Source: a bacterium (GTDB lineage Bacteria > Patescibacteriota > Patescibacteriia > SG8-24). From it: a stretch of DNA of 64,000 bases. Every line of letters starts with the position of its first letter. Positions within the stretch are counted from its first letter, which is position 1. The notes under the pieces are model-generated. The model saw only the letters and a program-made list of their open reading frames with translations, was not told the origin of the DNA and searched no databases. This document shows, one piece after another, positions 5,904-45,565 of this stretch. The stretch spans positions 571-64,570 of the forward strand of contig JAKAKZ010000003.1 in NCBI GenBank assembly GCA_021824285.1. Reading direction: 5' to 3'. A program made the position numbers and the translations under genes.

Positions 5904-5947
5904 CGTCAAAACAAAGACGCCCCGCCACAAGGGCGGAGCGTCTTTGT
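5904..5947 (-). terminator. terminator immediately 3' of tRNA-Asp
   Basis: acaaagacgc-cccgccacaagggcgg-agcgtctttgt has a 10-bp stem. On the minus strand it is followed by a ttgttttg run. Confidence 0.55.
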
Positions 5948-5949
5948 TC

Positions 5950-6027
5950 TGGCGGGTCCGAAGGGATTCGAACCCTCGGTCTTCTCCGTGACAGGGAGAC
6001 GTGTTAACCGGGCTACACCACGGACCC
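5950..6027 (-). tRNA. tRNA-Asp (anticodon GTC), CCA encoded
   Basis: Reverse complement GGGTCCGTGGTGTAGCCCGGTTAACACGTCTCCCTGTCACGGAGAAGACCGAGGGTTCGAATCCCTTCGGACCCGCCA. A full cloverleaf can be drawn: 7-bp acceptor, D-stem GTGT/ACAC, anticodon stem TCTCC/GGAGA with loop CTGTCAC, T-stem GAGGG/CCCTT. Confidence 0.9.
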
Positions 6028-20660: not shown

Positions 20661-20705
20661 CAAGGGGACTGTCCCTTTTTGTTCAAAAGGGGACACTCCC
20701 CTGTG
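20661..20705. repeat. REP elements (GGGGACTGTCCC palindromes) of the RAYT-associated family
   Basis: caaggggactgtccctttttgttcaaaaggggacactcccctgtg. The same units flank the transposase at 35809-35880 and 36496-36575. Confidence 0.6.
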
Positions 20706-20755
20706 AATAAACATCAGGGACAGGTTAAGGCGGAAAAGATAGAATAAGGGTAGGT

Positions 20756-29563: not shown

Positions 29564-29915
29564 AGCTGTGGGTGAAGATTGTGGGATAAAGATGCGGGCA
29601 GGAGGTGAGGCCATCAGATTAGATGCCCGTTTCTTTGCCGCCATCTCTATTTATCTCTCGATTTCTATTTATCACAATCCACAATATTAGTCAACATTAC
29701 TGTAGACTTATGTCGGCAATTTAGGCTCTTGAACCCTTTTGCTACAGTGCTTCGTATTAATGATTACGCAATCGCCGCCACCCATATATTCAGTCCGCCG
29801 TTGAGCTTCTTTGGGCTTAAAAGGATTGCCAGAAAGCACCCAGCATGCTATATTCGTCCAGTCATTTTAATCGGCAGGGTGGAGCTTATTTTCAATTCAA
29901 AGCTCCTCCCAGGGT

Positions 29916-29943
29916 GTAACGCTTGGCCGCTTCTTACGTCTAA
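29916..29943 (+). promoter_or_regulatory. candidate ECF-type autoregulatory promoter GTAAC-N16-CGTCTAA, 8 nt upstream of ATG
   Basis: gtGTAACgcttggccgcttcttaCGTCTAAttggATG. An AAC -35 and CGTC -10 resemble ECF sigma promoters. The transcript would be leaderless. Confidence 0.4.
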
Positions 29944-29947
29944 TTGG

Positions 29948-30547
29948 ATGTCGAACATTTTGAAAGAAAAATTCCTCCTGTTCCGCATCCGCGCCAAGAA
30001 GGACCCCGATGCCTTCGGCCAGATCTACGACGCCTACGTGCGCAAGATCTACCGTTTCATCTACTTCAAAGTCGCGAGCGCGGAACTGGCCGAGGATCTC
30101 ACTTCCGAGACCTTCCTGAAGGCCTGGCAGTACCTGATGGAGAAGCGTGAGGTCCCGCATCTGCAGGCCCTCCTATATACAGTCGCGCGCAACGTGGTCA
30201 TCGACCACTACCGCGCGGCGGCCCACCTGCAGGCGGACATCCCGCTCGACGAAGCCGTGGCCAACGAACTGACTTCCGCGGGGAGCGAAAAGCTCCTCAA
30301 GGACGTCGAGGCCGGCATCGACATGATGAAGGTGCTCGAGAAGCTCCGCGGACTCAAAGACGAGTACCGCGAAGTCGTGGTCATGAAGTATCTCGACGAG
30401 CTAACCACGAGTGAGATCGCAACGGCCTTGGGGAAGACTCAAGCCAACGTCCGGGTCATCCTGCACAGGGCGACCAAGGCGCTCGGCGATTCTATCCAAG
30501 ACGCCCGTGAACGAACTCCGCAAAATCCTGACCGCAGTGAAGAATGA
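29948..30547 (+). CDS. ECF-type sigma-70 family RNA polymerase sigma factor
   Basis: Region 2 (YRFIYFKV...AEDLTSETFLKAW) and region 4 (VVVMKYLDELTTSEIATALGKTQANVRVILHRATKAL). Start at MSNILKE, ATG 29948. Confidence 0.85.
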   Translation: MSNILKEKFLLFRIRAKKDPDAFGQIYDAYVRKIYRFIYFKVASAELAEDLTSETFLKAWQYLMEKREVPHLQALLYTVARNVVIDHYRAAAHLQADIPLDEAVANELTSAGSEKLLKDVEAGIDMMKVLEKLRGLKDEYREVVVMKYLDELTTSEIATALGKTQANVRVILHRATKALGDSIQDARERTPQNPDRSEE

Positions 30548-30602
30548 ACGGCGAGGTGGCGCCCCGCACGATTCTTGGGTTTCCCGCGAACGCGACATCC
30601 TG

Positions 30603-31568
30603 ATGATGCAGGTCCGCAACACGATGGACCTCAACGCGAAACCCGGACTCGGCGACTCGATGCGCCACCTTTTCGGTATCTTCCTGCCGCTCCAGACCCT
30701 GGCCCTCGCCGGCCGGGCCGTCGCGCTGTTCGCCCTGGTGTTCGCCACCGTCATCGGCGGCGGCGCCGCGACCGCCAACCTCTACCGGGCCGCCATGCCG
30801 GGCTCCGTGGGCTATTCCTTCAAGCTGGCCGTCGAGAAGCTGCAGCTGGCCGTCGCGCCGACCGCAGAATACCGTGCCAACCTGTTCGCCGAGTTCGCCG
30901 ACCGCCGCATGGATGAGGTGGCCAAGCTCGCGGAAGCCGGCAAGAGCCGCACGAGCGACCACCTGCCCTCCGTCCTGGCTTCCTTATCTAAAGACATCAC
31001 CGGTTTGGGCGGTGCGCTCGCCGATCTCGAGAAGTCCCGCGACGCCGCCTCGCTCGAATCCGCCAAGCTGATGGAGCGCAAGATGGCCAGCTACCAGGCC
31101 GCGCTTTCCAGGTCCGCGGCGCTCATCGCGCCGTCTTACCACGGCGACTTCCTGGCGGTGCGCGACCGTGTGGATGACCTCTCGGTCAAGGCCATGGCCG
31201 TCATCGTGGAGAAGCATCTGGAAGGGGACAGCGCGGCGCCGCGCGGCGTGCTCGTGGCCAAGTTCGAGGATCACCTGAACGAGGCCGAAGCGAAAGCCGA
31301 ACAGGCGGCGGCGACGGCATCGCCGGAGAAGACCCAGCAGACCAAGGCCGCCATCGCCGAAGCGAAACAGCTGGTGAAGGAAGAGAAGTACGAAGCGGCG
31401 CTCTCCAAGATGGCGGAAGTCGTCGAACTGACCAAGGATGTGGAGGCGACGAACCAGGATGAAGCCAAGACGAATGACGCCACAACCGACCATGTCGCGG
31501 CCCCGGACAAGAACGCCACGAACGATCTGACCGCCACGACCGACAAGACTGAAACGCCGAAACCATAA
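30603..31568 (+). CDS. DUF5667-like membrane protein (sigma-associated, anti-sigma candidate)
   Basis: Short N-terminus, TM helix (LFGIFLPLQTLALAGRAVALFALVFATVIGG), then PGSVGYSFKLAVEKLQLAV...FAEFADRRMDEVAKLAE matching DUF5667, then a coiled-coil with a K/E/A/T-rich tail. The start may lie earlier (a GTG at ~30537 overlaps the sigma gene stop). Confidence 0.6.
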   Translation: MMQVRNTMDLNAKPGLGDSMRHLFGIFLPLQTLALAGRAVALFALVFATVIGGGAATANLYRAAMPGSVGYSFKLAVEKLQLAVAPTAEYRANLFAEFADRRMDEVAKLAEAGKSRTSDHLPSVLASLSKDITGLGGALADLEKSRDAASLESAKLMERKMASYQAALSRSAALIAPSYHGDFLAVRDRVDDLSVKAMAVIVEKHLEGDSAAPRGVLVAKFEDHLNEAEAKAEQAAATASPEKTQQTKAAIAEAKQLVKEEKYEAALSKMAEVVELTKDVEATNQDEAKTNDATTDHVAAPDKNATNDLTATTDKTETPKP

Positions 31569-31699
31569 AAACGTCACATATATATAGGAGCGGAGCGCAA
31601 GGCCCCTCCGGAAAAACAAAAACACCTAAACAAACACCTTCGCCGTCGCATAACATCGCTCACTACAATCCGACACGGTTCAAGGCTCAATGGCACTGG

Positions 31700-31776
31700 T
31701 TGTTGGGTTGAGAGTTGAAAGTTGACAGTTGAGTTCCGGCCGGGACTTTCAACTTTAAACTCTAAACTTTCAACCG
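31700..31776. repeat. AGTTGA/AACTTT-type inverted repeat
   Basis: gttgagagttgaaagttgacagttgag ... gactttcaactttaaactctaaactttcaacc. Confidence 0.5.
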
Positions 31777-32021
31777 CACGAACAATGCCATTGGGTCTGG
31801 CAACCGAACGCCTGACCGTGCGCCCGATCCGCGCGCCCGCTTCCCTTCGAAAAGGAACGGCCGCTGCAGATCGGCCGCACTGTCCGGTAACCGGTCGTTC
31901 AGACCCGTATATGTCGGAAACACGACGCATCAGCCCACAAGGTCGAGTCCCACAAGGACGCTGGCGCGTACGCCGCCGCAGGATTACCTGCGGGGCTACT
32001 CCAAAAGGATTACTTCAACTT

Positions 32022-35000
32022 ATGAACAACGTGTTACGTATGAGCCGGAAGGCCATGACGGGCGCTGTCGTCGCTACGACGATCGCCTGGTCCATCGGTC
32101 TCTCCGCCCTCGTCGCCCCGCTGGCCGTCAAGGCCGCGCCGGCTGCGGGCACGCTCGTCAAGGCTTCCCTCCCGGCCGTCTACTACGTCGGCTCGGACGG
32201 CAAGCGCTATGTCTTCCCGAACGAGAAGACCTACAAGACCTGGTACGCTGATTTCTCCAGCGTCCAGACCATCACTGATGCGGAACTCGCCGCGCTCCCG
32301 ATTGGTGGCAACGTCACCTACAAGCCGGGCGTCCGCATGATCAAGATCACCTCGCTCCCGAAGGTGTACGCCGTCTCCAAGGGCGGTGCGCTCCACTGGG
32401 TCACCAGCGAGGCGGTCGCCACCGCGCTCTACGGCGCGAACTGGAACAAGATGATCGATGACGTACCGGATTGGGCGTGGGTCAACTACGTCGAGTCCTC
32501 GGACATCAACTCGGCCAGCGATTTCAACGCTTCCTCCGAGTCGTCCATCGCCTCGATCAACCTCGACAAGAACCTCGGCAGCTCCGCTGTCGTTACGGGT
32601 GCCTTGTCCGCCTCTCTCAGCTCGAGCAGCCCGGCTGCCACGACGCTGCCGAAGGGCGCCACTGGCGTCGTTCTCGTCAAGCTTGATGTCCGCAACGGCG
32701 GTTCGTCCGCCGCGGTCGTCGACTCCCTGACGGTGCGCCGCTCCGGTCCGGGCGCGGCCTCGGATTTCTCCGCGGTCTACGTCTACAACGACAACAACCG
32801 CCTGACCACCGGTCGGACGATCAACTCGTCCACCAACGAGGCCTCGTTCAGCGGTCTCGGCCTGTCGCTCGCCGCTGGTGAGAGCAAGTCTCTCTCCATC
32901 GTCGCCGACATCGCCTCGTCCGTTGGCGCCGGCAACGTCAGCGCGTTCTCCGTCGTCTCTCTGAGCGCCGGTACGACCGCCGCTTCCGGCCTGCCGCTCG
33001 CTGGCCCGAACTTCACCATGTCTTCCGCCACGGCCGGTTCCCTGACTGTCACCAAGTCCGGCGCCAGCCCGCTGTCCAACGTCAAGTTGGGCGGTATGGC
33101 CCAGAAGATCGGTGAGTTCCAGCTCGCCGTCGGCTCCGCCGAGGATGTCCGCCTCGCCAAGATTGCCTTGTACGAGGCTGGCGCGGTCAGCAAGTCCTCT
33201 CTCTCCAACTTTGCCCTCAAGCAGGCCGGTCTGACGATCGCCACTGCCGCGGGTATCGACAGCAAGGATCGCGTCACCTTCGTGCTCGCGGCTCCGATGC
33301 TCCTGGAGAAGGGCACTTCCCGCACCTTCGAGGTGTTCGCTGATGTCGCGGCCAACGCCCGCGTCGGCTCCACCGAGACCATCCTCTCCTACGTCGATCA
33401 GGCCTCTGACGTTCTCGCGATCGGTCAGACCTACGGCGTCGGCGTGAGCGTGGATATCGGCTCCTCCGGCAACTACAACGGCACTTCCTGTGCCCTGGGC
33501 GCCGGCAACTGCTCCTCGACTCGCATTGAGGGCGGCCAGCTGACGGTTACCTTCAACGGCCCGGCCGTTAAGGACATCGCCGTCAACGGCAAGGATGTCG
33601 AGCTCTACAACTTCACCATGGCTGCGGCCAGCAACCTCGAAGTGCGCTACCTGCGCATGCAGATCAATGCTGCCAACGTCGCTGGTACCAACGACGGTCT
33701 CATCGACACGTCCGGCACCGCGGTCGCCAACTACTCGGACATCAAGGTCACCGACGTCGCCACTGGCGCCATCGTGGCCGGTCCGCTGTCGTTGAGCACC
33801 TCGGGTTCCGACTCCACCCAGGCTCTGACCTTCACCGAGGTGTTCAACCTCGCTCCGGGCCAGGCCCGCACCTTCAAGGTGACGGCTGATGTCGCGAACA
33901 ACGCCGACGCCACCTTCGCCAACGACACGGTCAGCATCGACCGCCTCGCTTGGAGCTCTGGTGACATCCGCAACCTGGACAACAGCACCAACATTGCCCT
34001 CTCCGACATCGTGCCGAACACGACTGCCGCGGGTAATGCCCACAACATCAAGTCCCCGAGCCTGACGGCCTCCGCCGGTTCCACGCCGGTCGCGCAGACC
34101 TTCATCATGGGTTCGCAGGGCGTCGCGTTCCTCGGTCTCAACCTGAAGGCGGGCGATGCGTCTGACATCAACGTCAGCTCGCTCACCCTCAAGGGCATGA
34201 TCGACGCTACGCAGGACGGCACCTTCGCCCAGGGTCAGGAATCCACTGGCAACACTGTCGCCGCGGTCGTCGCGACGGCTAAGCTGATGAACGGTGCGAC
34301 CCAGCTCGGTCAGACCAAGTCCCCGGCCACGTCTTCGGGCGTCGGCACTGGCGGCGACATGACCTTCGACAACCTGAACCTCACGGTTCCGAAGGGCCAG
34401 TCGCTCGCTCTGACGCTCGTCGTCAACCTGAACGGCGGTCTCGGCTCGATCTCGAGCGACCTCCGCTTCGACGTGACCGCCGGCTCCGCTACGGATGCTG
34501 ACGGCAACAACGTCTCGGTCAGCGGCCTGACGGTCACTGGCACGAAGATGACGGTCAAGTCCGCCGGTACGCTCACGCTGGCTCTCGCTCCGGATGATAC
34601 GGAGTCCGAGGCCGGTCTGGTCGTCGGTGGTTCTTCGAACGCCGTCCTCGGCAAGTTCAAGTTCACCGCCCAGAACGAGGAGCTGAAGCTCACCAAGCTT
34701 AACGCCACGGTCGATACGGCCGCCGGCGTCAGCAGCTTGAGCCTCTTCGACGGTTCCACCCTCGTCGCCGGTCCGATCGGCGTCGACGGCACGGGCCTCG
34801 CCTCCTTCACTGGCGTCAACTTCGTCATCCCGAAGGATGCTTCTAAGGTCCTGACCGTTAAGGGCAACCTGAACGCGGTGGGCGCCTCCGGCGCTACGAC
34901 CGGTTCCTCGGTCCGCCTCGGTCTGTCCACCACCAACTTCGAGGTCCGCGGCACGTCGGCCGGCTCCAGCACTCTGCTGACCGCCCCGTCCTCCGGCGCC

Positions 35001-35561
35001 TTCCCGTTGGCGGCCAACCCGAAGGTCGCCCGCAAGTCCAAGCCGACGGTGTCCGTTGTCGCTCTGCCGACCACGACGCTGTCCGGCGGCGACCAGGTCG
35101 TCCTGCGCTTCACGGTTGCGGCTGACGCTGCCAGCGACATCTCGCTCGGCCAGCTCCACGCCACGATCACGAAGAGCGGTTCCGTCGTCGTTGCCCTCCC
35201 GGCTTCGCCGACCACCAAGACCCTGCGCCGCACTGGTGGTGACTTCATCACCCTCGGCACTGTGACCTTCTCGACCAACGACCTGCTCATGGTCCTCTCC
35301 ACGGAGGAGACCGTCGCGGCTGGCACGTCCAAGACCTTCGAGGTCTACATGAACATGACCAGCGCCGCGAACGGCGACAGCGTTACGTCCACCATCCCGA
35401 CGGATGCGGCTAGCGCCACGGGCACTCTGTCCGGCCTCTCGGCCAACAACTTTGTCTGGTCCGACATGTCCATTGTCGGCCACGGCACGGGTACGGCTGA
35501 CTGGGCTTCTGGCTACAAGGTCAAGAGCCTGCCGACGGACTCCCAGTCGCTGGTCAAGTAA
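32022..35561 (+). CDS. giant secreted surface protein (1179 aa): conserved ~105-aa N-terminal module + long low-complexity beta-rich region
   Basis: Signal peptide MNNVLRMSRKAMTGAVVATTIAWSIGLSALVAPLAVKAAPAAG. The module AVYYVGSDGKRYVFPNEKTYKTWY...VTYKPGVRMIKI...KVYAV...LYGANWNKMIDDVPDWAWVNY is followed by ~1000 aa of A/S/T/G/V-rich repeats. The opposite-strand 1149-aa ORF is an artefact. Confidence 0.75.
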   Translation: MNNVLRMSRKAMTGAVVATTIAWSIGLSALVAPLAVKAAPAAGTLVKASLPAVYYVGSDGKRYVFPNEKTYKTWYADFSSVQTITDAELAALPIGGNVTYKPGVRMIKITSLPKVYAVSKGGALHWVTSEAVATALYGANWNKMIDDVPDWAWVNYVESSDINSASDFNASSESSIASINLDKNLGSSAVVTGALSASLSSSSPAATTLPKGATGVVLVKLDVRNGGSSAAVVDSLTVRRSGPGAASDFSAVYVYNDNNRLTTGRTINSSTNEASFSGLGLSLAAGESKSLSIVADIASSVGAGNVSAFSVVSLSAGTTAASGLPLAGPNFTMSSATAGSLTVTKSGASPLSNVKLGGMAQKIGEFQLAVGSAEDVRLAKIALYEAGAVSKSSLSNFALKQAGLTIATAAGIDSKDRVTFVLAAPMLLEKGTSRTFEVFADVAANARVGSTETILSYVDQASDVLAIGQTYGVGVSVDIGSSGNYNGTSCALGAGNCSSTRIEGGQLTVTFNGPAVKDIAVNGKDVELYNFTMAAASNLEVRYLRMQINAANVAGTNDGLIDTSGTAVANYSDIKVTDVATGAIVAGPLSLSTSGSDSTQALTFTEVFNLAPGQARTFKVTADVANNADATFANDTVSIDRLAWSSGDIRNLDNSTNIALSDIVPNTTAAGNAHNIKSPSLTASAGSTPVAQTFIMGSQGVAFLGLNLKAGDASDINVSSLTLKGMIDATQDGTFAQGQESTGNTVAAVVATAKLMNGATQLGQTKSPATSSGVGTGGDMTFDNLNLTVPKGQSLALTLVVNLNGGLGSISSDLRFDVTAGSATDADGNNVSVSGLTVTGTKMTVKSAGTLTLALAPDDTESEAGLVVGGSSNAVLGKFKFTAQNEELKLTKLNATVDTAAGVSSLSLFDGSTLVAGPIGVDGTGLASFTGVNFVIPKDASKVLTVKGNLNAVGASGATTGSSVRLGLSTTNFEVRGTSAGSSTLLTAPSSGAFPLAANPKVARKSKPTVSVVALPTTTLSGGDQVVLRFTVAADAASDISLGQLHATITKSGSVVVALPASPTTKTLRRTGGDFITLGTVTFSTNDLLMVLSTEETVAAGTSKTFEVYMNMTSAANGDSVTSTIPTDAASATGTLSGLSANNFVWSDMSIVGHGTGTADWASGYKVKSLPTDSQSLVK

Positions 35562-35769
35562 TGACCGCGTAAGGGTTCTCGTGACTCCTTTGGTCTAAAA
35601 GTCACGGTGCGCGGTACGTGAGTCGGGTGCGGTCGGGGAGTCGGACGCCAAAATAGCGTCCGGCCACCCGCCCACCCGCTCGCGCCGCCGCCTCGGGTCT
35701 CGGTCCGCAATAAAAGCGTTCCGACTAGCCCAACTCGCGCTGCCTGCTCATTCAGGCCGCGCGCCGCAA

Positions 35770-35795
35770 GACACCGGCTTCCGCCGGTGTTTTGC
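35770..35795 (+). terminator. rho-independent terminator
   Basis: caccggc-ttcc-gccggtg followed by ttttgc. Confidence 0.55.
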
Positions 35796-35808
35796 TTATC
35801 CACAAGGG

Positions 35809-35880
35809 GACAGTCCCTTTTTCACCCAAAAGGGACAGTCCCTTTTTGGGTCAAAAGGGACTGTCCCCTAAAAGTCCTTC
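35809..35880. repeat. REP cluster (3 units of AAAGGGACWGTCCCTTTT) flanking RAYT
   Basis: aaggggacagtccctttt, aaaagggacagtcccttttt and aaaagggactgtccccta. The last unit overlaps the transposase stop. Confidence 0.7.
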
Positions 35881-36449
35881 CGTTTCTTGATCGGGTTTTG
35901 CTGCCACGCTCTCGTCATTGCCCGATATTCCGCTTGGCGTTCCATTGGATTAACTGCAAGTGAAAGATACAGCGGATTTTGATCTATCAACGAATCAGGT
36001 TGGCCATATGCGTAAGTCACATAACTAGACCAAGGGTAGCCTTCTGGATTTTTCGTAATGCCGGCTCTAACAGGATTCAACTCAATATAGATTCCGCAGA
36101 TTGATTGGTAGGCCTCATCAGTAACGATGCGGCTATGGAAACGGCCTTGCCATAAATGTCCGACAAAACCGTATTTTTTCTTATAATAAAGCGAATAAGT
36201 TTGATTGATTGTCTTCATTATAATTGCCAGATTTTGACCGCCGGACACCAATAATTGCATGTGCAGGTGATTGTTCATGACGCAATAATGATAGAGAAGA
36301 AAGGGTGTTTCTTTTTTGGCCTTCTGCACGATGGCCAACATGGCATAAAAGTCCTCATCATCTAGAAAAATGATGTTTTTGTTGTTGCCGCGGCTGACAA
36401 CGTGATAGATCGCCGTACCTGATTCGATTGGTCTGGCAGTTCTTGGCAT
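35868..36449 (-). CDS. IS200/IS605-family Y1 HUH transposase (REP-associated tyrosine transposase, RAYT-like)
   Basis: IYHVVSRGNNKNIIF...HLHMQLLV (HuH) ...TYSLYYKKKYGFVGHLWQGRFHSRIV matches the Y1 transposase fold. The gene is markedly AT-rich compared with the surrounding genome. Start at MPRTARP (ATG ~36449). Confidence 0.7.
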   Translation of the reverse strand: MPRTARPIESGTAIYHVVSRGNNKNIIFLDDEDFYAMLAIVQKAKKETPFLLYHYCVMNNHLHMQLLVSGGQNLAIIMKTINQTYSLYYKKKYGFVGHLWQGRFHSRIVTDEAYQSICGIYIELNPVRAGITKNPEGYPWSSYVTYAYGQPDSLIDQNPLYLSLAVNPMERQAEYRAMTRAWQQNPIKKRKDF

Positions 36450-36495
36450 AGCGCGCTTTCTTTTACACCGTAGCGGCGTCCTTTCAAGGCAGTTA

Positions 36496-36575
36496 TCCAC
36501 AAGGGGACTGTCCCTTTTTTGGTCAAAAGGGACTGTCCCTTTTTGGCCCAAAAGGGACTGTCCCCTTTGTGCTAT
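36496..36575. repeat. REP cluster (3 units) on the other flank of RAYT
   Basis: ccacaaggggactgtcccttttttggtcaaaagggactgtccctttttggcccaaaagggactgtcccctttgtgc. Confidence 0.7.
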
Positions 36576-36586
36576 ACTTGGCGCAT

Positions 36587-37789
36587 ATGCGCCCACGACT
36601 CCTTTCTCATCTCGCGCTGGCATCATTGCTGGCCGTCTCTCTAATTCCTTCCATGCCCGCCGCTGCCACCGGGCAGACTTACGTTGCGGATACCGAAATC
36701 CAGGTCGGCAGCTCGACGCTCAAGATCATGGCCGGCTCCGAGGCGGACAGTCTGTCAGTCGCCGGCAACAGCCTGACCGTGACCGTGGCGCCGGATGAGG
36801 TCTTTGACCTGCGCTATCCGGGCGGCAATCCGCTGGGTCTCGAGAACGATTCCGGCTTGGCCGCCTGCAACGTCCTGCCGAACCGCGATAACCAGCTGCT
36901 GATCACCGGGCCGCACACCGTGACTGTCTCGGTCAGCACCTTCGCCTGCAGCACGGCCAATTACAGCACCAACAGCACGCCCCTTCTCACCGTCTCCCAG
37001 CCGGCTGGCGGAGCGTCGTTCAAGCCCGGCGATAGCGCGCAGATCTTCTGGCAGCTGACCGGCCATTCCGTGGCCAGCATCCGGATCCGCCTGTCCGTCG
37101 ACGGGGGATTGAGCTATCCGACCACCTTGGTCGACAACCTGCTGAACAGCGGCTTCTATTCCTGGACCGTGCCGGAGATGACCACGACGACGCACGCCCG
37201 GCTGAAGATCGAGGGGCGCACCCAGGGGGCAACGTCCGCCTGGGCCTTGAGCCAGGAATTCTCCATCCAGGGCGCAGCGCCCGCCGCGCCGGCTGAAACG
37301 GCGGCGCCGGCACCTGGCGGTTATTCGCCAGAGGCGGTCACGGCCGAGGCCGATTCCATCGGGCATGATCGGGGCTTTGTCAGTACGCCGGAAGCCGCAT
37401 CCTCCGAGTGCCCGGCCGGATTGCGTATCAAGGGTCGCGGTCTGCCAGCGGTCTATTACTGCGGCCCGGACGGCAAGCGGCATCCTTTCCCGAACCAGAA
37501 GATCCATGATTCGTGGTATGCCGGCGATTTCGCCGGAGTCTACGAGGTCGCCGACTCGACCCTGGCGCGGATTGCGCTCGGCCAGAACGTGACCTACCGG
37601 CCTGGAGTGCGCATGGTCAAGGTGACTACGGACCCCAAGGTCTATGCCGTGGACGCCGACGGCACGCTGCGGTGGATCAAGACCGAAGCGGCGGCGGCGC
37701 GGCTTTACGGCGCGGACTGGAACAAGAAGATCGATGACCTGCCGGACGCCTTCTTCTTCGATTACCATACAGGCGATCCCATCGAATGA
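36587..37789 (+). CDS. secreted protein with C-terminal copy of the conserved ~105-aa module
   Basis: Signal peptide MRPRLLSHLALASLLAVSLIPSMPAAA. The mid-region resembles Ser/Thr-rich surface domains. The C-terminus AVYYCGPDGKRHPFPNQKIHDSWY...VTYRPGVRMVKV...KVYAV...LYGADWNKKIDDLPDAFFFDY is the shared module. Confidence 0.65.
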   Translation: MRPRLLSHLALASLLAVSLIPSMPAAATGQTYVADTEIQVGSSTLKIMAGSEADSLSVAGNSLTVTVAPDEVFDLRYPGGNPLGLENDSGLAACNVLPNRDNQLLITGPHTVTVSVSTFACSTANYSTNSTPLLTVSQPAGGASFKPGDSAQIFWQLTGHSVASIRIRLSVDGGLSYPTTLVDNLLNSGFYSWTVPEMTTTTHARLKIEGRTQGATSAWALSQEFSIQGAAPAAPAETAAPAPGGYSPEAVTAEADSIGHDRGFVSTPEAASSECPAGLRIKGRGLPAVYYCGPDGKRHPFPNQKIHDSWYAGDFAGVYEVADSTLARIALGQNVTYRPGVRMVKVTTDPKVYAVDADGTLRWIKTEAAAARLYGADWNKKIDDLPDAFFFDYHTGDPIE

Positions 37790-37906
37790 ACGCGACGGCG
37801 GACCGCCGGCCCCAGCGGCCGGCGGTTTTGGCTCACGGCCCGGCGGTTGCCAAGCCCCGACTTTTCGGCTAGGGTCAGTGATGTATTACAGCTAATTTTC
37901 AACCGT

Positions 37907-39106
37907 ATGCGCCGCAATATCCAGCATTTCCCGCTCGCCGTCCTGATGTCCCTGGCTCTCGCCCTGCCGCTCCTGCCGGCGCGACCGGCCGCCGCGACCG
38001 TTCTGGGTGTCTTTCCGGGCGACCTCATCAAGCTGCAGGACGACCATAATTCCCAGACGCATGAGGACGAGGCCGTCTATTATTTCGACAAGGATTGGTT
38101 CCGCCATCCCTTCCCGAACCAGCGCGTGTTCATGAGCTGGTACCGGGACTTTTCCGGCGTGAAGTCGCTGTCCACGACGGACATGGCCGATATCCGCATG
38201 GGGGCGCCCGTGACCTACCGGCCCGGCACGCGGCTCGTGAAAATCCCTTCAATCCCGAAAGTCTACGCAGTGGAACCGGGCGGCATTCTGCGCTGGATCA
38301 CGGACGAGTCGGTCGCCAAGGACCTCTATGGCGCCAACTGGTCCAAGCGGGTGGACGACGTGAGCGAGGCCTTCTTCGTCAACTACAAGGAAGGCGAACC
38401 GCTGCGCACGGCAATGTGGCCGACCGGCACGCTGGTCCGCAATCCGGCGGACAAGACGCTTTATGTCATCGACGGCTACTCGCGCCGCCATGTCACCGCG
38501 ACGGAAGCCGCGTCGCTGCGGCTTAACGAGTCCGACGCGCTGGACGGCGGCACGGCTATTGAGGAGCTGCCCATGGGACCGTCGGCCACAGCCGGCGGCG
38601 ACCGCCTGTCCGATACCGCCGAGCTTTCCCGGATCGAGACCTTGCCGGCCCTGCAGATAGATTTCCCGGCGCCGGTCACGGCCGCGGCACGCGGCGCGGA
38701 GCAGGTGCTCCTGTCCATGCGGCTCACTGCCGGCGCGCCGGTAACCTTACGGCGTCTCACGGCCAAGCTCTCCGGACCGGTCCGGCTGAACGGCCAGCCG
38801 CTGCTCACTGATCTGCGGTTTGAGGATTCGGCGGGCGAGAACATCTTCGGCACGGTCCAGCTGCCGGCCGACAGCGGAGACGAACTCGCGACGCTCGTCT
38901 GGAACGGTGCCTTCACTCTGCAGGCCGGCACGGAAGACATGGTGAAACTGCTGGCATCGGTCTCGGCGGACATGCCGGCCGGAGCGCAACTGACCATCGA
39001 GCTGCCGCGGTCCGGATCCTACGTCTCCGATGGCTTCGACGCTGAGGAACGCGCGCAATTCGCGCCGCCCGGCGAACTCCCGGACGCCAAAGTGACCTTC
39101 CGCTAA
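37907..39106 (+). CDS. secreted protein with N-terminal copy of the conserved ~105-aa module
   Basis: Signal peptide MRRNIQHFPLAVLMSLALALPLLPARPAAA. AVYYFDKDWFRHPFPNQRVFMSWY...VTYRPGTRLVKI...KVYAV...LYGANWSKRVDDVSEAFFVNY. Confidence 0.65.
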   Translation: MRRNIQHFPLAVLMSLALALPLLPARPAAATVLGVFPGDLIKLQDDHNSQTHEDEAVYYFDKDWFRHPFPNQRVFMSWYRDFSGVKSLSTTDMADIRMGAPVTYRPGTRLVKIPSIPKVYAVEPGGILRWITDESVAKDLYGANWSKRVDDVSEAFFVNYKEGEPLRTAMWPTGTLVRNPADKTLYVIDGYSRRHVTATEAASLRLNESDALDGGTAIEELPMGPSATAGGDRLSDTAELSRIETLPALQIDFPAPVTAAARGAEQVLLSMRLTAGAPVTLRRLTAKLSGPVRLNGQPLLTDLRFEDSAGENIFGTVQLPADSGDELATLVWNGAFTLQAGTEDMVKLLASVSADMPAGAQLTIELPRSGSYVSDGFDAEERAQFAPPGELPDAKVTFR

Positions 39107-39112
39107 GAGAAG

Positions 39113-39140
39113 GAACGCGCCTCCCCAGGCGCGTTTTTTC
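39113..39140 (+). terminator. rho-independent terminator
   Basis: aacgcgcc-tcccca-ggcgcgtt followed by ttttc. Confidence 0.7.
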
Positions 39141-39162
39141 GCCGCCGAACTCCTGGGCCGAA

Positions 39163-39175
39163 CGGTGGTATAATG
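39163..39175 (+). promoter_or_regulatory. extended -10 TGGTATAAT ~8 nt upstream of ATG (leaderless candidate)
   Basis: cggTGGTATAATggccgcatATGg. Confidence 0.45.
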
Positions 39176-39182
39176 GCCGCAT

Positions 39183-41498
39183 ATGGTTACGGCATCCCGT
39201 ATGGGCAAGATTCTGGCTGCCGCCGCCTGCCTGGCGGCGGTATTGGCGGTCCGTCCGCCGGCGGAAGCCGCTGCTTCGTACCAGGCCGGCGACCTGGTCA
39301 AGGCACCGGACAGCCGAGCCGTGTATTACGTCGGCTCCGACGGCCGGCGCTATGTCTTTCCGAACCAGCTGACCTACCTGACCTGGTACGGAGATTTCGC
39401 GTCGGTCAGGACCATCGCGGACGCGGAATTGGCCGCTCTTTCGATCGGCGGCAACGTCACTTACCGCCCCGGAACCAGGCTCGTGAAGATCGTCTCCGAT
39501 CCGCGGGTCTATGCCGTCGAACCGGGCGGCGTCCTGCGGCCAATTCCGGACGAGAGCGCGGCCGTCGCGCTCTACGGCGCGGACTGGTCGAAGCGGGTGG
39601 ACGATGTCCCTGATGCATTTTTTTTCAGCTACCGGATCGGCGCGCCGCTCGCGGCCGCGGCCTACCCGGAAGGCTCTTGGGTGCGGCGGGTCTCCGACGG
39701 CCGGATCTTCCTGATCCAAGACGGCCAGAAACGTGAGGTCTCCGGCTCATTGCTCACCGCGCTTCGCGTCACCGCGGCGCAGATCATGCCGGAGACGGCC
39801 GACCTGAACGGCTATGCCCTCGGCGCGCCGCTTGAGCAGACCGAGAGCCTGAACGACACCGCCCAGCTGGGCATCGAGCGGACTACCGCCGCTCCCGTGG
39901 CGTCGCTCTACCTGCAGCCGGCGACCGACCCCGGCATGCCAATCTACGTACGTGGAACCAAGGACGCGGCCATCGCTGGCCTGCTCCTCATGGACGGTTC
40001 CGCGGATCCGGTCACGGTCTCGGCCATCACCTTCCAGGGTTACGTGGACAGCGAAGGCACTGCGGGCTTCCTGCCGGCGGTGGATTCCGATGGGGGATCG
40101 GCCAAGCACGTGAATGCGATCCTGCCGGCCGCGTCTCTCTACGACGACACCGGCCGACTGCTGGCCGGTCCGGTGCCGATCGGACTTGACGGCCGGGCGT
40201 TCTTCAGCGGTTTCCGCCTGGCGGTTCCGGCCGGCGGCAGCCGTACGGTCGTGATCAGAGGGGACATCCCGGCGTACCTGGATACCGGTCTCGAGCCGGA
40301 TTATCTAGCGTTCGACGTGGAGGACGCGGTCCGCGACGTCACGGTCACGGATGCGGCCGGCGGCAGCGTCAAAGCGACCGGCAACCGGCCGAATCGCGGG
40401 ACCGAGGCCTTCAACTACGCGAAGATTCTGCGCAGCGGAACGGTCAATTTCACCTGGCGCGGCACGACGACCGTGATGATCGGTGGGCGCGACGCCAAAC
40501 TCGGCACTCTGACGGTGGATACGAAATACGATACCTACGCCTTGCGCACGATTGCCTTCCGGCGGACCAGCCAGACTTCTTATGGCGACGCGCGGCTGGA
40601 ATATCCCGGTGCGGACGGCAAGACCGTTTCGAAGACGGTCCAATGGCGCGGCGGCGCGGCCGTGTTCACCGATTTGGGAGCGTACTTGCCGCGGGACTCG
40701 TCCGTGGGCCTCGCGCTCTACGCGCAGGTCCTGTCCCGCGATACCGGGGGAGTCTACGGCGATGCGCTTGGCGCGCAGCTCGACACCGCCGGACCGCTGC
40801 AGTTCGTATCCCAGGCCGAGGGCGCGACCTATTCGGAGAAGGATTTGGGCAACGGTTCGTTTGGTCTCGTGGCCAATACGGCCGGTCGGGTAACGGTTCG
40901 CTATTCCGGCTTGAGCGTCACGCCGTTGCCGACCGCCGTCGCATTCCGCGACAGCAATACGCCGCTGCTGGCCTTCTCCGCCAAAGCGGAACCCGAGGGT
41001 CCCATCCGGATCAGGAAGATGACGTTTCGCATCAGCCCGGATGACGCGGGACGTTCCGGGGCCGCGAATGATGCGCTCGAACTCTGGGCGGGACGTCCGG
41101 CGACTTCGATTGCAGCCGTGCGCCGCGTCTATTCGACCACGACCGAACTCCTCGGTACTCCCGGCAACGGCCGGCTGCGTTTCCGGGAGTGGCGCGGCAA
41201 CGGCACGGAGATCGACCAGGCGCAGCCGTTCCAGTCGAACATCGGCGACTACGCCACGCTGGAGCTGGACTTCGGCGAGAACGGCGAGTATCTGATACCG
41301 GCTGGCCTGACGGCCGATTTCCGGTTCGAATTGGACACGACCGTTTTCCCGACTGATCGCGATCACCGCTGCGCCGTCGAGCTGCGCGGCGACGCGGATT
41401 TCCTTTGGACCGACATCCCGTATGGCGCCTACACCGCGCTCGGCGGCACGGACGCGGGCGGTGTGCCCTTCTCGGCCACGGTTACGGTGAATAAATAA
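39183..41498 (+). CDS. secreted protein (771 aa) with N-terminal copy of the conserved ~105-aa module
   Basis: Signal peptide MVTASRMGKILAAAACLAAVLAVRPPAEA. AVYYVGSDGRRYVFPNQLTYLTWY...VTYRPGTRLVKI...RVYAV...LYGADWSKRVDDVPDAFFFSY, then ~600 aa without a recognised domain. The start could alternatively be MGKIL at 39201. Confidence 0.65.
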   Translation: MVTASRMGKILAAAACLAAVLAVRPPAEAAASYQAGDLVKAPDSRAVYYVGSDGRRYVFPNQLTYLTWYGDFASVRTIADAELAALSIGGNVTYRPGTRLVKIVSDPRVYAVEPGGVLRPIPDESAAVALYGADWSKRVDDVPDAFFFSYRIGAPLAAAAYPEGSWVRRVSDGRIFLIQDGQKREVSGSLLTALRVTAAQIMPETADLNGYALGAPLEQTESLNDTAQLGIERTTAAPVASLYLQPATDPGMPIYVRGTKDAAIAGLLLMDGSADPVTVSAITFQGYVDSEGTAGFLPAVDSDGGSAKHVNAILPAASLYDDTGRLLAGPVPIGLDGRAFFSGFRLAVPAGGSRTVVIRGDIPAYLDTGLEPDYLAFDVEDAVRDVTVTDAAGGSVKATGNRPNRGTEAFNYAKILRSGTVNFTWRGTTTVMIGGRDAKLGTLTVDTKYDTYALRTIAFRRTSQTSYGDARLEYPGADGKTVSKTVQWRGGAAVFTDLGAYLPRDSSVGLALYAQVLSRDTGGVYGDALGAQLDTAGPLQFVSQAEGATYSEKDLGNGSFGLVANTAGRVTVRYSGLSVTPLPTAVAFRDSNTPLLAFSAKAEPEGPIRIRKMTFRISPDDAGRSGAANDALELWAGRPATSIAAVRRVYSTTTELLGTPGNGRLRFREWRGNGTEIDQAQPFQSNIGDYATLELDFGENGEYLIPAGLTADFRFELDTTVFPTDRDHRCAVELRGDADFLWTDIPYGAYTALGGTDAGGVPFSATVTVNK

Positions 41499-41525
41499 TC
41501 AGTTTACAGAAGTAAGCGCCATCGG

Positions 41526-41560
41526 CCGCAGGCCGCCCGGATTTGCCGGGCGGTTTTTTC
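41526..41560 (+). terminator. rho-independent terminator
   Basis: ccgcccgg-atttg-ccgggcgg followed by tttttt. Confidence 0.75.
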
Positions 41561-41585
41561 GGACGGCCGACCACCCTCCCGGATG

Positions 41586-41597
41586 TGGTATAATTAA
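41586..41597 (+). promoter_or_regulatory. extended -10 TGGTATAAT
   Basis: ggatgTGGTATAATtaatacagg. Drives the small ORF at 41625. Confidence 0.45.
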
Positions 41598-41624
41598 TAC
41601 AGGTAAAATCAACACCAAACGATC

Positions 41625-41852
41625 ATGTTCCCTCCATTCGGCAAATCAGATGACCCGCCGGACTCCGGCATAGAAGGACCCTTCGGTCCGCCTGGCGGCG
41701 GTCCGCCCCCTTCGGACGGCCGCTTCGCCGATTTCGCGGGCGAAGACATGGACGGTTTCCTTGAACCCGTGGATTTCAGCCGGCGACAGCGCCGGATCGA
41801 CGACTGCCTGCAGGTCGGTCTGCACTTCTTCGGGGCCCTGCGTCGGTCATGA
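41625..41852 (+). CDS. small acidic Pro/Gly-rich protein (75 aa), hypothetical
   Basis: Has its own promoter-like -10 and a downstream hairpin with a T-tract (41868-41892). It is compositionally unusual, so coding status is uncertain; it could be a leader peptide or sRNA. Confidence 0.3.
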   Translation: MFPPFGKSDDPPDSGIEGPFGPPGGGPPPSDGRFADFAGEDMDGFLEPVDFSRRQRRIDDCLQVGLHFFGALRRS

Positions 41853-41867
41853 ACAAAATAACTGTAC

Positions 41868-41892
41868 AACCCCGCCTAGCGCGGGTTTTTCC
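41868..41892 (+). terminator. terminator after small ORF
   Basis: aaccccgc-ctagc-gcgggtttttcc. Confidence 0.55.
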
Positions 41893-42030
41893 GTTTCCGT
41901 GCCTTGCGTTGTCGCTACGGCCACGCTCTGTTACAATTCGCGCATTATGCGGTTGTCTGTATCGCCTGTCCATGAGCGCCGTTGCGGCGGAATCGACCGT
42001 ACAGCTAAGCGGTTAAGGACCGTCGGCGCC

Positions 42031-44037
42031 ATGCTGCTGCTCATGGCCATTTTGCCGTCCGCGGCATGGGCGCAGGAGCGTCAGCCGAACGATCCGCTTT
42101 ACGGCGAGCAATGGTATCTGCACAAGATCGCCGCGGCGCAGGCTTGGGGCAGCACACTCGGTTTCGAAGGCGTGACGGTGGCGGTCATCGATTCCGGCGT
42201 CGACATCGACCATCCGGACCTTAAGGAGAATATCTGGACGAACCGCAACGAGATTCCCGGCAACGGCATCGATGATGACCTGAACGGCTACGTGGATGAC
42301 GTCCACGGCTGGGATTTCGTGGATAACGACAACGATCCGCGGCCGTCGCTCGTGAAGCCCTACAGCGTCATCGGCGCGAGTCACGGCACCGTTACGGCGA
42401 GCCTCATCGCGGCGCGCGGCGACAACGGCCGGGGACTCACGGGCGTGACTTGGCAGACTACGGTCATGCCGCTGCGGGTGCTGGATTCGAGCGGCGAGGG
42501 CAACTCGATGAGCGTGGTCCGCGCCGTCGAGTATGCGGTGAAGAACGGCGCCAAAGTGATTAACCTGGGCTTCGTCGGCGACGTCGGCGGCGATCTGCTG
42601 CGGATTGCCCTGCGCCGCGCCTATGACGCCGGCGTGACGGTCGTGGCCGCGGCCGGCAATGCCCCGGAGGGCGGGGTGGCCACCGACCTGGATGCGACAC
42701 CGCTTTATCCGGTCTGCTTCGACGCCAACGCAACCGACGATTTCGTGATCGGCGTCGCCGCCACGGACGAGTTCGACACCCTGACCGATTTCTCCAACTA
42801 CGGCGCCAAATGCGTGGACGTCTCCGCGCCCGGCAGCCGCATCTTGGCCGCCAAGCCCTACCGGCCGGAGAATCCGGACTTCAACAAGCTGTACGGCGGC
42901 TACTACAGCGGCACATCGGTGGCAACGCCCCTGGTTTCCGGCGCGGCCGCGTTGCTCCTCTCCATGAATCCGCGCCTGACCCCCGCGCAGATCCTGGCGC
43001 TCTTGGGTTCGACGGCGGCCAAGGTCACGGCCCCACGGACCGGCGCGGCCGGACGGGGACGCCTGGATGTCGGGGCGGCCGTGAGAGCACTCGAGGAACA
43101 GTTGGCCTCCAGGGCCCCGATGCAGTCCGCCGCTCCGGCAGCTGTACCCGGAGGCAAGATGATCGCGGTGGCGGCCGGTCCAGGCCGCGCGCCGGACATT
43201 CGGCTGTTTACCGCTGAAGGCCTGTTCATCCGCGAGTTCGCCGCTTTCCCGAAAGAGTTCCGGGGTGGCATTTCCCTGTCGGCCGGTGACTTGGACGGCA
43301 GCGGTTCTTATCAGTTGGCTGCCGGCGCCGGACCGGGCGGCCTGCCGCAAGTGCGGATTTTCGACCGAAACGGCAGCGAGTCCGGCACCTTTTTGGCCTT
43401 CGATTCCGGTTTCCGCGGCGGCGTCTCCGTGGCGGTGGGCGACGTCCAGGGCAAGGGACGTGCGGCAATCGTGGCCGCGGCCGGGCCGGGCGGCGGACCG
43501 CACGTGCGTATTTTCGACGCGCGCGGCGTGCCAATCGGCGGAGGATTCTTCGCCTTCGACAAGGGGTTCCGCGGCGGCCTGTCAGTGGGTGTGGGCGATC
43601 TGAACGGCGACGGCAAGGCGGAGATAGCCGCCGTCTCCGGAGCCGGTATGCCGGTCACGGTCCGGACTTTCGACCTGCGCGGCAATCTGCTCGGTTCGTT
43701 CCAGCCTTTCGGCAGCCGTGAACGGCGCGGCGCCAGGATTTCGGTTCAGGATATAGACGGCGACGGGACCGCCGAACTGCTCGTGACGCTCGGCGTCAAG
43801 AACGCCAAGCCGGTCGCATTCACGTCCGCCGGCCGCCGCCTCGGGGAATTCGACGGCGCCAAAGCGCTGTTTGCGGACAGCCGAAAATGGTCCTCCGGCA
43901 CGCCTGACGCCCTGACTTGGACCGCGGCCGGCAGCCCGCCAGCCGTGACCGTCTTTTCCTCGTCCGCGGCGCCGCTTCAGTTCCAGGCTTTCGAGAAGAA
44001 GTTCGCCGGCGGCGTGACGGCCGCGGTGCTGAAATGA
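42031..44037 (+). CDS. secreted subtilisin-like S8 serine peptidase with C-terminal FG-GAP repeats
   Basis: Signal peptide [16 protein letters not shown]. Catalytic triad motifs [13 protein letters not shown] (Asp), [12 protein letters not shown] (His) and [16 protein letters not shown] (Ser). The C-terminus has 5-6 repeats such as [27 protein letters not shown]. An alternative ATG lies at ~41947. Confidence 0.8.
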   Translation: [668 protein letters not shown]

Positions 44038-44530: not shown

Positions 44531-45565
44531 ATGGCCGCAGATCCCATTTTCGAGAAGAAAAACGTGCTGGTGACCGGCGGGGCCGGCTTCATCGGCTCAT
44601 TCCTGTGCGAGCGGCTGCTCAAGGACGCCCGCGTCATTTGCGTGGACAATTTCTCGACCTCCGCCCCGGCCAACATCGAGCTGCTGCTCAAGAACCCGGA
44701 TTTCGAGCTGCTGAAGATGGACATCGCCCAGCCGTTGGACCTCGAGAATTACGCCGAGCTGGAACGCTTCAAGATCAAGTTCCAGGGCATTCAGGAGATC
44801 TATCATCTCGCCTGTCCGACCTCGGCCAAGGATTTCGACAAGTTCCGCTATGCGACGCTCCTGGCCAATTCCGTCGGCCTGCGTAACGTGCTCGACCTGA
44901 CGGTCAAGTACAAGGCGCGGTTCTTCCATGCCTCCACATCGGTCATCTACGGACCGCGTCCGACCGACGGCCACCTGTTCAAGGAGGCGGAGTTCGGCGT
45001 CATGGACCACCTCTCGCCGCGCGCCTGCTACGACGAGGGCAAGCGCTGGGCCGAGACCATGGTCCAGACGTTCAAGAACATCTTCGGCATCGATGCCCGC
45101 ATCGCCCGCATTTTCCGAACTTTCGGGCCGCGCATGCCGCTCAATGACGGTCAGATGATTCCGGATTTCATCCTGGACGCGCTCGACGGCAAGGACCTGA
45201 CGATTTTCGGCGGTCAGGAATTCCGCACCTCGCTGGTCTATGTCACGGACGTGGTGGACGGCATCCTGCGGCTCATGGCGCTCGGCCGTGATCCCGGACC
45301 GGTGAATATCGGCAGCGACTATGATGTCCGACTTTCCGACGTGGCCAAACGCATCATTGAACTGACGGGATCGAAATCGCAGATCAAGTACGAGCAGCCC
45401 CTCCTGTTCATGAGTCAGCTCGGGTTGCCGGACCTGACCAAGGCCAAGGATGAGCTGGGCTGGTTCCCGCTGGTCTCGCTGGAGCAGGGACTCAAGAAGT
45501 CAATCGAGTACACGGTGGCGCATCGCGGTCTGCTGCAGCCGAGCTTTCGGCCGAACGGGTCCTGA
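44531..45565 (+). CDS. UDP-glucuronate decarboxylase (UDP-xylose synthase)-like SDR
   Basis: GGAGFIGSFLCERLL Rossmann motif, STSVIYG and an intact YDEGKRWAETM (YxxxK). Strong overall similarity to the UXS family. Confidence 0.75.
   Translation: MAADPIFEKKNVLVTGGAGFIGSFLCERLLKDARVICVDNFSTSAPANIELLLKNPDFELLKMDIAQPLDLENYAELERFKIKFQGIQEIYHLACPTSAKDFDKFRYATLLANSVGLRNVLDLTVKYKARFFHASTSVIYGPRPTDGHLFKEAEFGVMDHLSPRACYDEGKRWAETMVQTFKNIFGIDARIARIFRTFGPRMPLNDGQMIPDFILDALDGKDLTIFGGQEFRTSLVYVTDVVDGILRLMALGRDPGPVNIGSDYDVRLSDVAKRIIELTGSKSQIKYEQPLLFMSQLGLPDLTKAKDELGWFPLVSLEQGLKKSIEYTVAHRGLLQPSFRPNGS

Follow-up and report, generated by a model that had tools for sequence, protein, structure and literature searches.

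A probable TIRtron-type Y1 nuclease locus in a conserved surface-protein cluster of Patescibacteriota

In this work we describe a Y1 (HUH/Tyr) nuclease gene and the palindromic repeats on both sides of it, found in 64,000 nucleotides of DNA from a member of the Patescibacteriota (lineage SG8-24; GenBank assembly GCA_021824285.1, contig JAKAKZ010000003.1, positions 571 to 64,570). This whole stretch is called here the window, and coordinates are given in its own numbering unless a related locus is named. An earlier note on this DNA had taken the element for a repetitive extragenic palindromic (REP) system with its RAYT-type transposase, inserted inside an array of paralogous surface-protein genes. 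From sequence comparison and by analogy with described systems, we consider it likely that the locus is of the TIRtron type, that is, a single-copy and vertically inherited TIRYT/RAYT-like Y1 gene bracketed by repeats which its product would most likely recognise. It is distinguished by a short protein, REPIN-like palindromic arrays, a one-sided tag resembling a DnaA box, a fixed locus and a persistently low G+C (GC) content.

The Y1 enzyme and its palindromic modules

The gene occupies 35868-36449 on the minus strand, where the earlier note had indeed read a Y1 transposase, and encodes a protein of 193 amino acids (aa) beginning with MPRTARP; a longer open reading frame of 252 aa, extending up to 36626, is an artefact that reads through the repeats. 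Y1_Tnp (PF01797) is the sole Pfam domain of the product, with 42.4 bits, above the cut-off of 23, and the NCBIfam search returned one match, REP_Tyr_transpos (NF047646), whose cut-off of 80 bits is not reached by the score of 67.3. Across 36 aligned homologs the histidines of the HuH motif (N-H61-L-H63) and the catalytic Tyr121, within GIYIELNPV (the YIxxNPV motif), are invariant, and the block GHLWQGRF is invariant or nearly so. The loss of catalytic residues, which the earlier note had named as a refutation of its reading, has not taken place, since HuH and Tyr are intact on this alignment. A sequence search of solved structures gave one match, the TnpA-REP of E. coli (4ER8), and the motifs of the two proteins align, the HuH with the HMH of 4ER8 and Tyr121 with the Tyr of DYIYINPV. 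In the AlphaFold model (pLDDT 90.4) the core is followed at the C terminus by one long helix. The best match of this model in the Protein Data Bank according to Foldseek is again 4ER8, TnpA-REP on a REP hairpin (E 4e-9, TM-score 0.72 on the target), with the TnpA proteins of IS608, ISDra2 and IS200 ranked behind it (E about 1e-5), and all of the top 30 matches are Y1 transposases. By its sequence and predicted fold, the 193-aa protein is a RAYT-like Y1 enzyme. No second copy of the gene was found by tblastn in the 64 kb.

Two modules flank the gene. The upstream one (36493-36566), situated between Y1 and the divergent gene of a surface protein of ~400 aa (p400), consists of the tag TTATCCACA (36493-36501) followed by three GGGACTGTCCC units with a period of 25 bp. 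The downstream one (35796-35869) opens with the same tag (35796-35804) and has three units too, the last overlapping the Y1 stop codon (35868-35870). The two form a 74-nt direct repeat with 89% identity; in the inverted register they are still 83% identical. Both registers align because the units are self-complementary, and the modules can be called direct because the tag is one-sided. The palindrome GGGACWGTCCC, with at most one mismatch, occurs nine times in the window against 1.36 expected, a number that none of 100 shuffles reached; the sites are at 35807, 35832 and 35857, at 36504, 36529 and 36554, at 20665 and 20690, and there is a weak intragenic one at 2855. A profile of the unit (nhmmer) found exactly eight units in three clusters and no other copies in the 64 kb. 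The window palindrome GGGGACAGTCCCC is a GGGGWSAS-type motif joined to its own reverse complement; the half-site GGGGACAG stands at 35806 and is found in reverse orientation at 35861 and 36558. As single-stranded DNA, the upstream triplet folds into one hairpin of ~31 bp (free energy -27 to -28 kcal/mol, z -5.6 to -6.5) and the downstream triplet into another of this length at about -30 kcal/mol (z -8.1), both centred on the middle unit in a REPIN-like way. The three REP units that had been counted on each side are therefore present as palindromes, but they are not canonical REPs, which are defined by a 5' GT[AG]G foot (PMC6006769); in the window modules, neither foot of the units (AAAAGGGACWGTCCCTTTT) bears GTAG or GTGG.

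Related loci, to which we refer by our own numbers (L122 and so on), carry one shared unit on both flanks of Y1 within each genome. This unit is GGGGAC.GTCCCC in the window, L122, L212, L123, L208 and L210, and the others, all palindromic, are GGTGAC.GTCACC (L207), GGTGTC.GACACC (L125) and GGTGTCAGGTACC (L217). In the window, L122, L125 and L208 the two modules are in direct orientation; those of L217 are inverted and those of L123 symmetric. A hairpin resembling an intrinsic terminator (ACACCGGC-TTCC-GCCGGTGT-TTT, 35771-35794, plus strand), which ends the convergent gene of a 1279-aa protein (p1279), adjoins the downstream module, and equivalent hairpins adjoin it in L122, L123, L125 and L217.

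Copies of the module are also found away from the gene. The one at 20661-20710 has a unit at 20665, a degenerate one at 20690 and the tag TGTGAATAA at 20702-20710, which reads TTATTCACA on the minus strand. A lipoprotein gene with its terminator precedes this copy, and a Wzy_C O-antigen-ligase-like gene has its ATG 46 nt farther on. The earlier note had reported such a doublet downstream of a lipoprotein gene, and both of its elements were found, the two units and a lipoprotein-type signal (..AFTLTAC..) in the gene ending at 20553. This layout, a terminator and then a module, matches that of the dispersed modules of L217, where a 62-nt module (TTATCC(A/C)CA, unit, spacer, unit, TGGGGATAA) is present in four copies in 13 kb; two of them flank Y1, mutually inverted, and the other two are intergenic in the paralog array, each right after a terminator. 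The extra modules of L217 represent a REP-like dispersal, and L122 has a decayed module in which the tag is followed by 6 nt and GGGACAG. Repeats that co-vary and disperse in this manner would be expected of a REP or TIR family tied to a cognate Y1 enzyme. A scan of a genome collection for the 17-mer AAAGGGACWGTCCCTTT retrieved a generic terminator-like palindrome of Collinsella and other Coriobacteriia, and the source genome was not among the matches listed. In these Coriobacteriia (L003-L082, among the matches listed) the sequence is single-copy and is probably a bidirectional terminator unrelated to the Y1 family.

The tag TTATCCACA corresponds to the DnaA-box consensus, and its two exact occurrences in the window are those of the flanking modules, 697 bp apart, while the tag of the dispersed copy, TTATTCACA, fits the relaxed consensus TT[AT]TNCACA. 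It stands beside the units also in L122, L212, L123, L125 and L217, and in relaxed form in L208. Upstream of Y1 it reads TTATCCACA (TGTGGAAAA in one box of L123) and downstream of Y1 it reads TTATCCCCA in four lineages; it stays constant while the palindromic units change across lineages. Most economically, it would orient or guide the enzyme, in parallel with the constant GTAG beside the variable stems of REPs. We also considered TGTGGATAA as a -10, -35 or ECF-type promoter element and rejected this, as its spacing to a second element is not consistent across lineages and a separate TTGnnn-16/18-TAnnAn promoter is conserved downstream. Free 9-mers of the DnaA-box consensus were seen just downstream of p400, before the next paralog, in L122 (1593), L125 (1635), L217 (7551 and 11120) and L213 (7309). 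That of L213 sits in a genome without Y1 and that of L122 is followed by half a palindrome; the free boxes may be decayed modules.

It has been described that RAYT-like genes with flanking inverted repeats bearing GGGGWSAS constitute "TIRYT" genes and "TIRtrons", and that some of their terminal inverted repeats (TIRs) are self-complementary, clustered and moderately abundant (Di Nocera 2013, PMC3733652). TIRYTs were later equated with subclass 2.1 of TnpA-Y1, which has a C-terminal helix-turn-helix (HTH) or Bac_DnaA_C domain and no canonical REPs (Quentin 2018, PMC6006769); a C-terminal HTH (Bac_DnaA_C, HTH_23 or HTH_28) is present in all 20 TIRYTs assigned to it (PMC6006769). Among the relatives retrieved with the window protein, L204 has Bac_DnaA_C and L179 has HTH_23, and the identity of the window protein to the HTH-bearing members is 36-41%. 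We surveyed the motif in 80 metagenomic loci having relatives at 30-45% identity, with counts that leave out the window and its close relatives (71 loci). GGG[AT]C[AG]G was found in forward orientation within 200 nt upstream of Y1 in 48 of 66 loci, as opposed to 10 of 66 for the opposite orientation. At the stop codon or beyond it, 47 of 64 loci have the reverse complement of this motif, as opposed to 7 of 64 for the other orientation, the chance level being about 5% (background 0.27 per kb). The annotated plasmid copies of Legionella, Sporomusa, Skermanella and Rhodospirillum (R. rubrum) share this arrangement.

Residence in the surface-protein cluster

As the earlier note had observed, the gene is markedly lower in GC than its surroundings, with 0.39-0.47 across Y1 versus 0.62-0.70 around it, and with a GC at third codon positions (GC3) of 0.47 versus 0.79-0.88 in eight neighbours. 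The description of the element as inserted inside the paralog array, which implies a recent event, is contradicted by the related loci, where Y1 is found at this position and is likewise low in GC, in lineages with neighbouring proteins that have diverged to 42-83% identity. At least five other Patescibacteria lineages (L122, L212, L123, L125 and L217) have Y1 at this place, in a cluster with the order ECF sigma factor, DUF5667 protein, ~1200-aa protein (p1200), Y1 and ~400-aa protein; in the first four of these, Y1 is convergent with the ~1200-aa gene and divergent from the ~400-aa gene. Identity to the window is 61, 62, 50, 47 and 40% for Y1 in L122, L212, L123, L125 and L217, respectively, and 72, 48, 53, 57 and 56% for p400. 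For p1279 it is 83% in L122, 42% in L123, 51% in L125 and 50% in L217, with no figure for L212. The divergence of the neighbours from the window roughly parallels that of Y1. A search with p400 found orthologs in entries named Uhrbacteria, Parcubacteria or Patescibacteria, by which the host falls within the candidate phyla radiation, and gave three more orthologous loci. L217 shows the full order of ECF sigma, DUF5667, p1200, Y1 and p400, and its divergent Y1 (40%) is still closest to members of the clade.

Low GC accompanies the gene everywhere in the clade. Every clade ortholog has a Y1 GC of 0.43-0.56 versus 0.59-0.67, and GC3 of Y1 is 0.47-0.68 versus ~0.8 for the host in the window, L122, L212, L123, L125, L207, L208, L210 and L217; the Y1 family members found in other high-GC hosts show no such reduction. 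Since it is low in all orthologs at a fixed locus, the low GC of Y1 is a stable property of the clade and no mark of recent transfer, and a recent horizontal insertion is rejected on account of the conserved position together with the low GC across all orthologs. To judge from these sequences, the Y1 gene is an old, vertically inherited resident of the surface-protein cluster and not a fresh insertion.

The comparison of related strains for presence or absence of the element, proposed in the earlier note, revealed loci of both kinds. L213/L214 (on a 1.5-Mb contig) and L215/L216 keep the order of the cluster without the Y1 gene and without modules; the spacer at the empty site is a plain 100 nt with a terminator in L213 and 585 nt in L215, and tblastn (E<=10) found no Y1 remnants at these sites. 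On whether these sites reflect loss or the ancestral state, the trees of p400 and p1200 conflict. In L215, a hairpin GGGACTGA-N17-TCAGTCCC at 5893-5930, which precedes the ATG of p400 by ~70 nt, may have arisen by decay of a unit.

Promoters were read by eye, with conservation across lineages as their support. The putative Y1 promoter (36460-36487, minus strand) has the -35 element TTGAAA at 36482-36487, a 16-nt spacer and the -10 element TAAAAG at 36460-36465, 10 nt from the ATG, and the tag sits just upstream of this -35. A TTGnnn-16/18-TA(A/T)nAn arrangement ~10 nt before the Y1 ATG is kept in L122, L212, L123, L125, L207, L208 and L210. For p400, a putative extended -10 box, TGCTATACT, is found on the plus strand at 36570-36578 (feature to 36589), 8 nt before the ATG at 36587, and GCTATACT followed after 6-8 nt by CATATG is kept in L122, L212, L125 and L217. 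The last palindromic unit spans positions from about -33 to -23 of p400 and abuts TGCTATACT. This layout suggests that the p400 mRNA may be leaderless or nearly so. The earlier note had a REP unit overlapping a GTG start and the signal-peptide region of this gene; the orthologs start at the ATG at 36587 (MRPRLL / MRLKTL), the GTG at 36569 is unsupported by their N-termini, and the unit lies outside the coding sequence of p400, clear of its start codon and signal peptide. A consensus promoter scan did not call the by-eye promoters of Y1 and p400, and the consensus scan flags the palindrome arrays as terminator-like on both strands. No known RNA family was found by Rfam in or near the element. 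In p400, Y1 and the Wzy-like gene alike (36570-36589, 36447-36465 and 20738-20758), -10-like boxes stand 8-10 nt before the ATG, a layout kept in relatives that suggests leaderless or near-leaderless mRNAs.

The conserved cluster extends over 29729-44037 and is seen also in L213, L215 and L217; with or without Y1, p400 is followed by further paralogs and then by an S8 peptidase with FG-GAP repeats. A domain of ~115 aa (YYVGSDGKRYVFPN...W) is common to the 1279-, 400-, 419- and 771-aa proteins (32150-32490, 37480-37789, 38070-38420 and 39290-39650), and other Patescibacteria have it in fusions with M23 peptidase, peptidoglycan-binding and Ig-like domains. Translation of the 1279-aa protein probably begins at an ATG near 32023 (MNNVLRMSRK...), the listed TTG at 31722 being probably spurious. 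The leader of ~450 nt between the DUF5667 gene and this ATG is apparently non-coding and contains a long hairpin at 31706-31775 (RNA free energy -34.8, z -3.65). On the 3' side of the 1279-aa gene, the region 35562-35795 is strongly structured (RNA z -5.2) and contains blocks kept in the orthologs, GCTCATTC(G/A)GG in all of them and GGTGCTAAAGACCTG(TCCC) in L123, L125 and L217; the latter is the reverse complement of the TIR-like GGGACAGGTCTTTAGCACC and resembles the module spacer of L217. Farther away, Rfam matches at the gathering threshold mark a tmRNA gene (12297-12693, plus strand) and a tRNA gene (5953-6027, minus strand). Two adjacent paralogs of the NAD-dependent epimerase/dehydratase family, with near-identical Pfam profiles (44531-45565 and 45750-46775), lie amid a long run of glycosyltransferase and sugar-nucleotide genes.

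Proposed mechanism and alternative explanations

By analogy with the TnpA-REP of E. coli and the TnpA of IS608, the binding, cleavage, copying and regulatory effect of the modules could be pictured as follows. Once the DNA is single-stranded, as lagging-strand template or extruded cruciform, the arrays would fold into hairpins to which the Y1 protein would bind, with the asymmetric tag setting the orientation in the manner of GTAG in REPs. Next, the Y1 protein would nick and rejoin the DNA using the HuH-bound metal and Tyr121, which could keep the two flanking modules alike and might occasionally seed new modules in terminator-proximal intergenic DNA, such as 20661-20710 and the two sites of L217. 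Because the upstream module adjoins both putative promoters, its occupancy or the extrusion of its hairpin would probably also affect transcription of Y1 and p400.

Several points weigh against a TIRtron-type locus as we describe it. The 193-aa protein is without the C-terminal HTH/DnaA_C domain of the published subclass 2.1, and the binding and cleavage of the modules are proposed by analogy only. The orientation of the modules varies among lineages. Perfect palindromes placed on promoters also fit operators of a dimeric regulator. The persistent low GC of a long-resident gene has no explanation in the model, and as to gain versus loss in the Y1-less relatives, the neighbour-joining trees of p400 and p1200 disagree. 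Moreover, the repeat family may be very small, because a single dispersed cluster was found in the 63 kb of the window that do not flank the gene.

The organisation that the earlier note had called classic, a REPtron in which a RAYT (TnpA-REP) is accompanied by canonical REPs that are highly abundant genome-wide and mainly at gene 3' ends, seems unlikely to us. Part of it stands, as a RAYT-like enzyme is bracketed by clustered REPIN-like hairpins, its best solved-structure match is the TnpA-REP of E. coli, its best NCBIfam model is REP_Tyr_transpos, and extra copies follow terminators. However, the 5' GT[AG]G foot is missing, the NCBIfam score of 67 falls below 80, the core is the TIRYT motif GGGGWSAS, and there are just three clusters in 64 kb, whereas RAYT groups 2 and 3 have tens to hundreds of copies of the flanking 16-mer (PMC5581495). 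That a recently acquired and still mobile IS200/IS605-type element, rich in AT, landed in the surface-protein array is very improbable. A unit of ~770 bp, near the size of IS200, hairpin ends that are direct as in IS608, a GC far below that of the host and the empty sites in related genomes would agree with it, but synteny largely refutes it: in at least six lineages, with neighbours at 42-83% identity, the gene occupies one and the same position and is low in GC. Moreover, the gene is single-copy in the window, the fold is nearer to TnpA-REP than to the TnpA of IS200 or IS608, and the flanking units co-vary with the lineage instead of travelling as one IS sequence.

We also find it improbable that the palindromes and TTATCCACA are host regulatory DNA, as operators of a dimeric regulator and/or sites of DnaA acting as a transcription factor on envelope and surface genes, with Y1 as a mere neighbour or itself turned regulator. 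The upstream module does abut the -35 and -10 elements of two divergent genes, the copy at 20.66 kb stands 46 nt before the Wzy-like gene, perfect dyads with co-varying half-sites would also suit a dimeric protein, and free boxes occur downstream of p400 in L122, L125, L217 and the Y1-less L213. Nevertheless, GGGGWSAS accompanies Y1 genes across phyla in unrelated contexts, one module of each pair comes after the Y1 stop beside a terminator, with no obvious operator target, the Y1-less L213 and L215 are without palindromes in the corresponding intergenic region, and the free box with half a unit in L122 looks like a decayed module. Least probable of all is an origin-like or DnaA-driven unwinding region made of two DnaA boxes around an AT-rich stretch of 600 bp. 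Two exact TTATCCACA boxes 697 bp apart do surround the lowest-GC segment, and we estimate that ~0.14 exact copies would be expected in the whole window from base composition, but the AT-rich stretch is a conserved, intact coding gene, only two boxes are present, the site has no clear skew switch, and the box also travels with dispersed modules. As a candidate oriC the region was rejected for having just two boxes, for its AT-rich DNA being a gene and for the absence of dnaA and dnaN among the window genes.

A further idea, rather unlikely in our estimate, is that TTATCCACA might be a real DnaA box. Short TIRYTs without the C-terminal domain would use DnaA or a DnaA-domain-IV-like protein beside the palindromes, longer relatives having DnaA_C or HTH in cis, and the hairpin would become available as a single strand, or be brought into position, when DnaA binds or unwinds the DNA. 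The TIR consensus sequences were reported to be unlike DnaA boxes despite the DnaA-like domains of subclass 2.1 (Quentin 2018, PMC6006769). No DnaA boxes were found near the domain-bearing relatives (L204, L179 and the plasmid copies of Legionella and Sporomusa), which makes the Rosetta-stone argument, box binding in trans versus by a fused domain, a weak one, and the flanks of loci beyond the close clade show an enrichment of the relaxed consensus of only ~3.5-fold, with five matches. If the idea were true, the DnaA-like domains noted by Quentin 2018, which have no explanation so far, would gain in this box their first cis-element. The activity of this Y1 subclass would be tied to DnaA status or replication, and there could be a reason why the gene between two boxes is persistently rich in AT and melts easily.

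Comparison with known systems

Genes of the RAYT and TIRYT kinds are among the commonest bacterial "transposase" annotations, and to our knowledge the E. coli enzyme is the only one that has been characterised; for subclass 2.1 we know of no DNA target beyond the loose GGGGWSAS and of no role for its DnaA-like domains. The locus described here offers a compact testable case, with a 193-aa enzyme, a co-varying palindromic unit, an invariant 9-nt tag, natural empty sites and relatives with dispersed modules. It indicates that such systems persist by vertical descent in the reduced genomes of the candidate phyla radiation, at a fixed place in a surface-protein cluster that evolves fast, has an ECF sigma/anti-sigma pair at its head and carries modules on promoters. 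It is also a caution that low GC and flanking repeats should not be taken as evidence of a recent insertion.

With DnaA boxes the locus shares the exact 9-mer at both window modules and relaxed matches in the dispersed copy, L122, L212, L123, L125, L217 and L208. Unlike boxes of an origin, these have no origin context and are part of a dispersed repeat module, and here they are candidate DnaA boxes by their sequence. With IS200/IS605 elements (the TnpA of IS608 and ISDra2) it has in common the catalytic fold, the IS200-like size and hairpins at both ends on one strand, although this last feature does not discriminate, because the units are palindromes. It differs from them in that the gene shows no sign of mobility (a single copy in the window, one locus across deep lineages), tnpB is absent, the ends consist of arrays of several units and the structural match is weaker than that to TnpA-REP.

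The HuH, WQxRF and YIxxNPV motifs are those of the TnpA-REP of E. coli (RayT/YafM, 4ER8), but identity over the structural alignment is 20%, no GT[AG]G foot is present, the score is below the NCBIfam equivalog cut-off and the visible copy number is far lower. As in REPtrons with their REPs, BIMEs and REPINs, a gene that is single-copy (here in the window) is bracketed by clustered hairpin repeats with extragenic extra copies, and vertical inheritance with conserved synteny is likewise shared (PMC5581495). TIRtrons with their TIRYT (PMC3733652), which probably correspond to subclass 2.1 (PMC6006769), have the same RAYT-related Y1 HUH protein and flanking repeats with GGGGWSAS, here GGGGACAG. 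In comparison with them, the present locus has a protein of 193 aa without the C-terminal HTH, perfect palindromes in arrays of 25-bp period that fold in a REPIN-like way, and modules that in the window are direct, not inverted, through their one-sided tag. This tag has the DnaA-box consensus, a likeness that Quentin 2018 did not see in TIRs, and the system resides in a Patescibacteria host at a fixed position within a surface-protein cluster.

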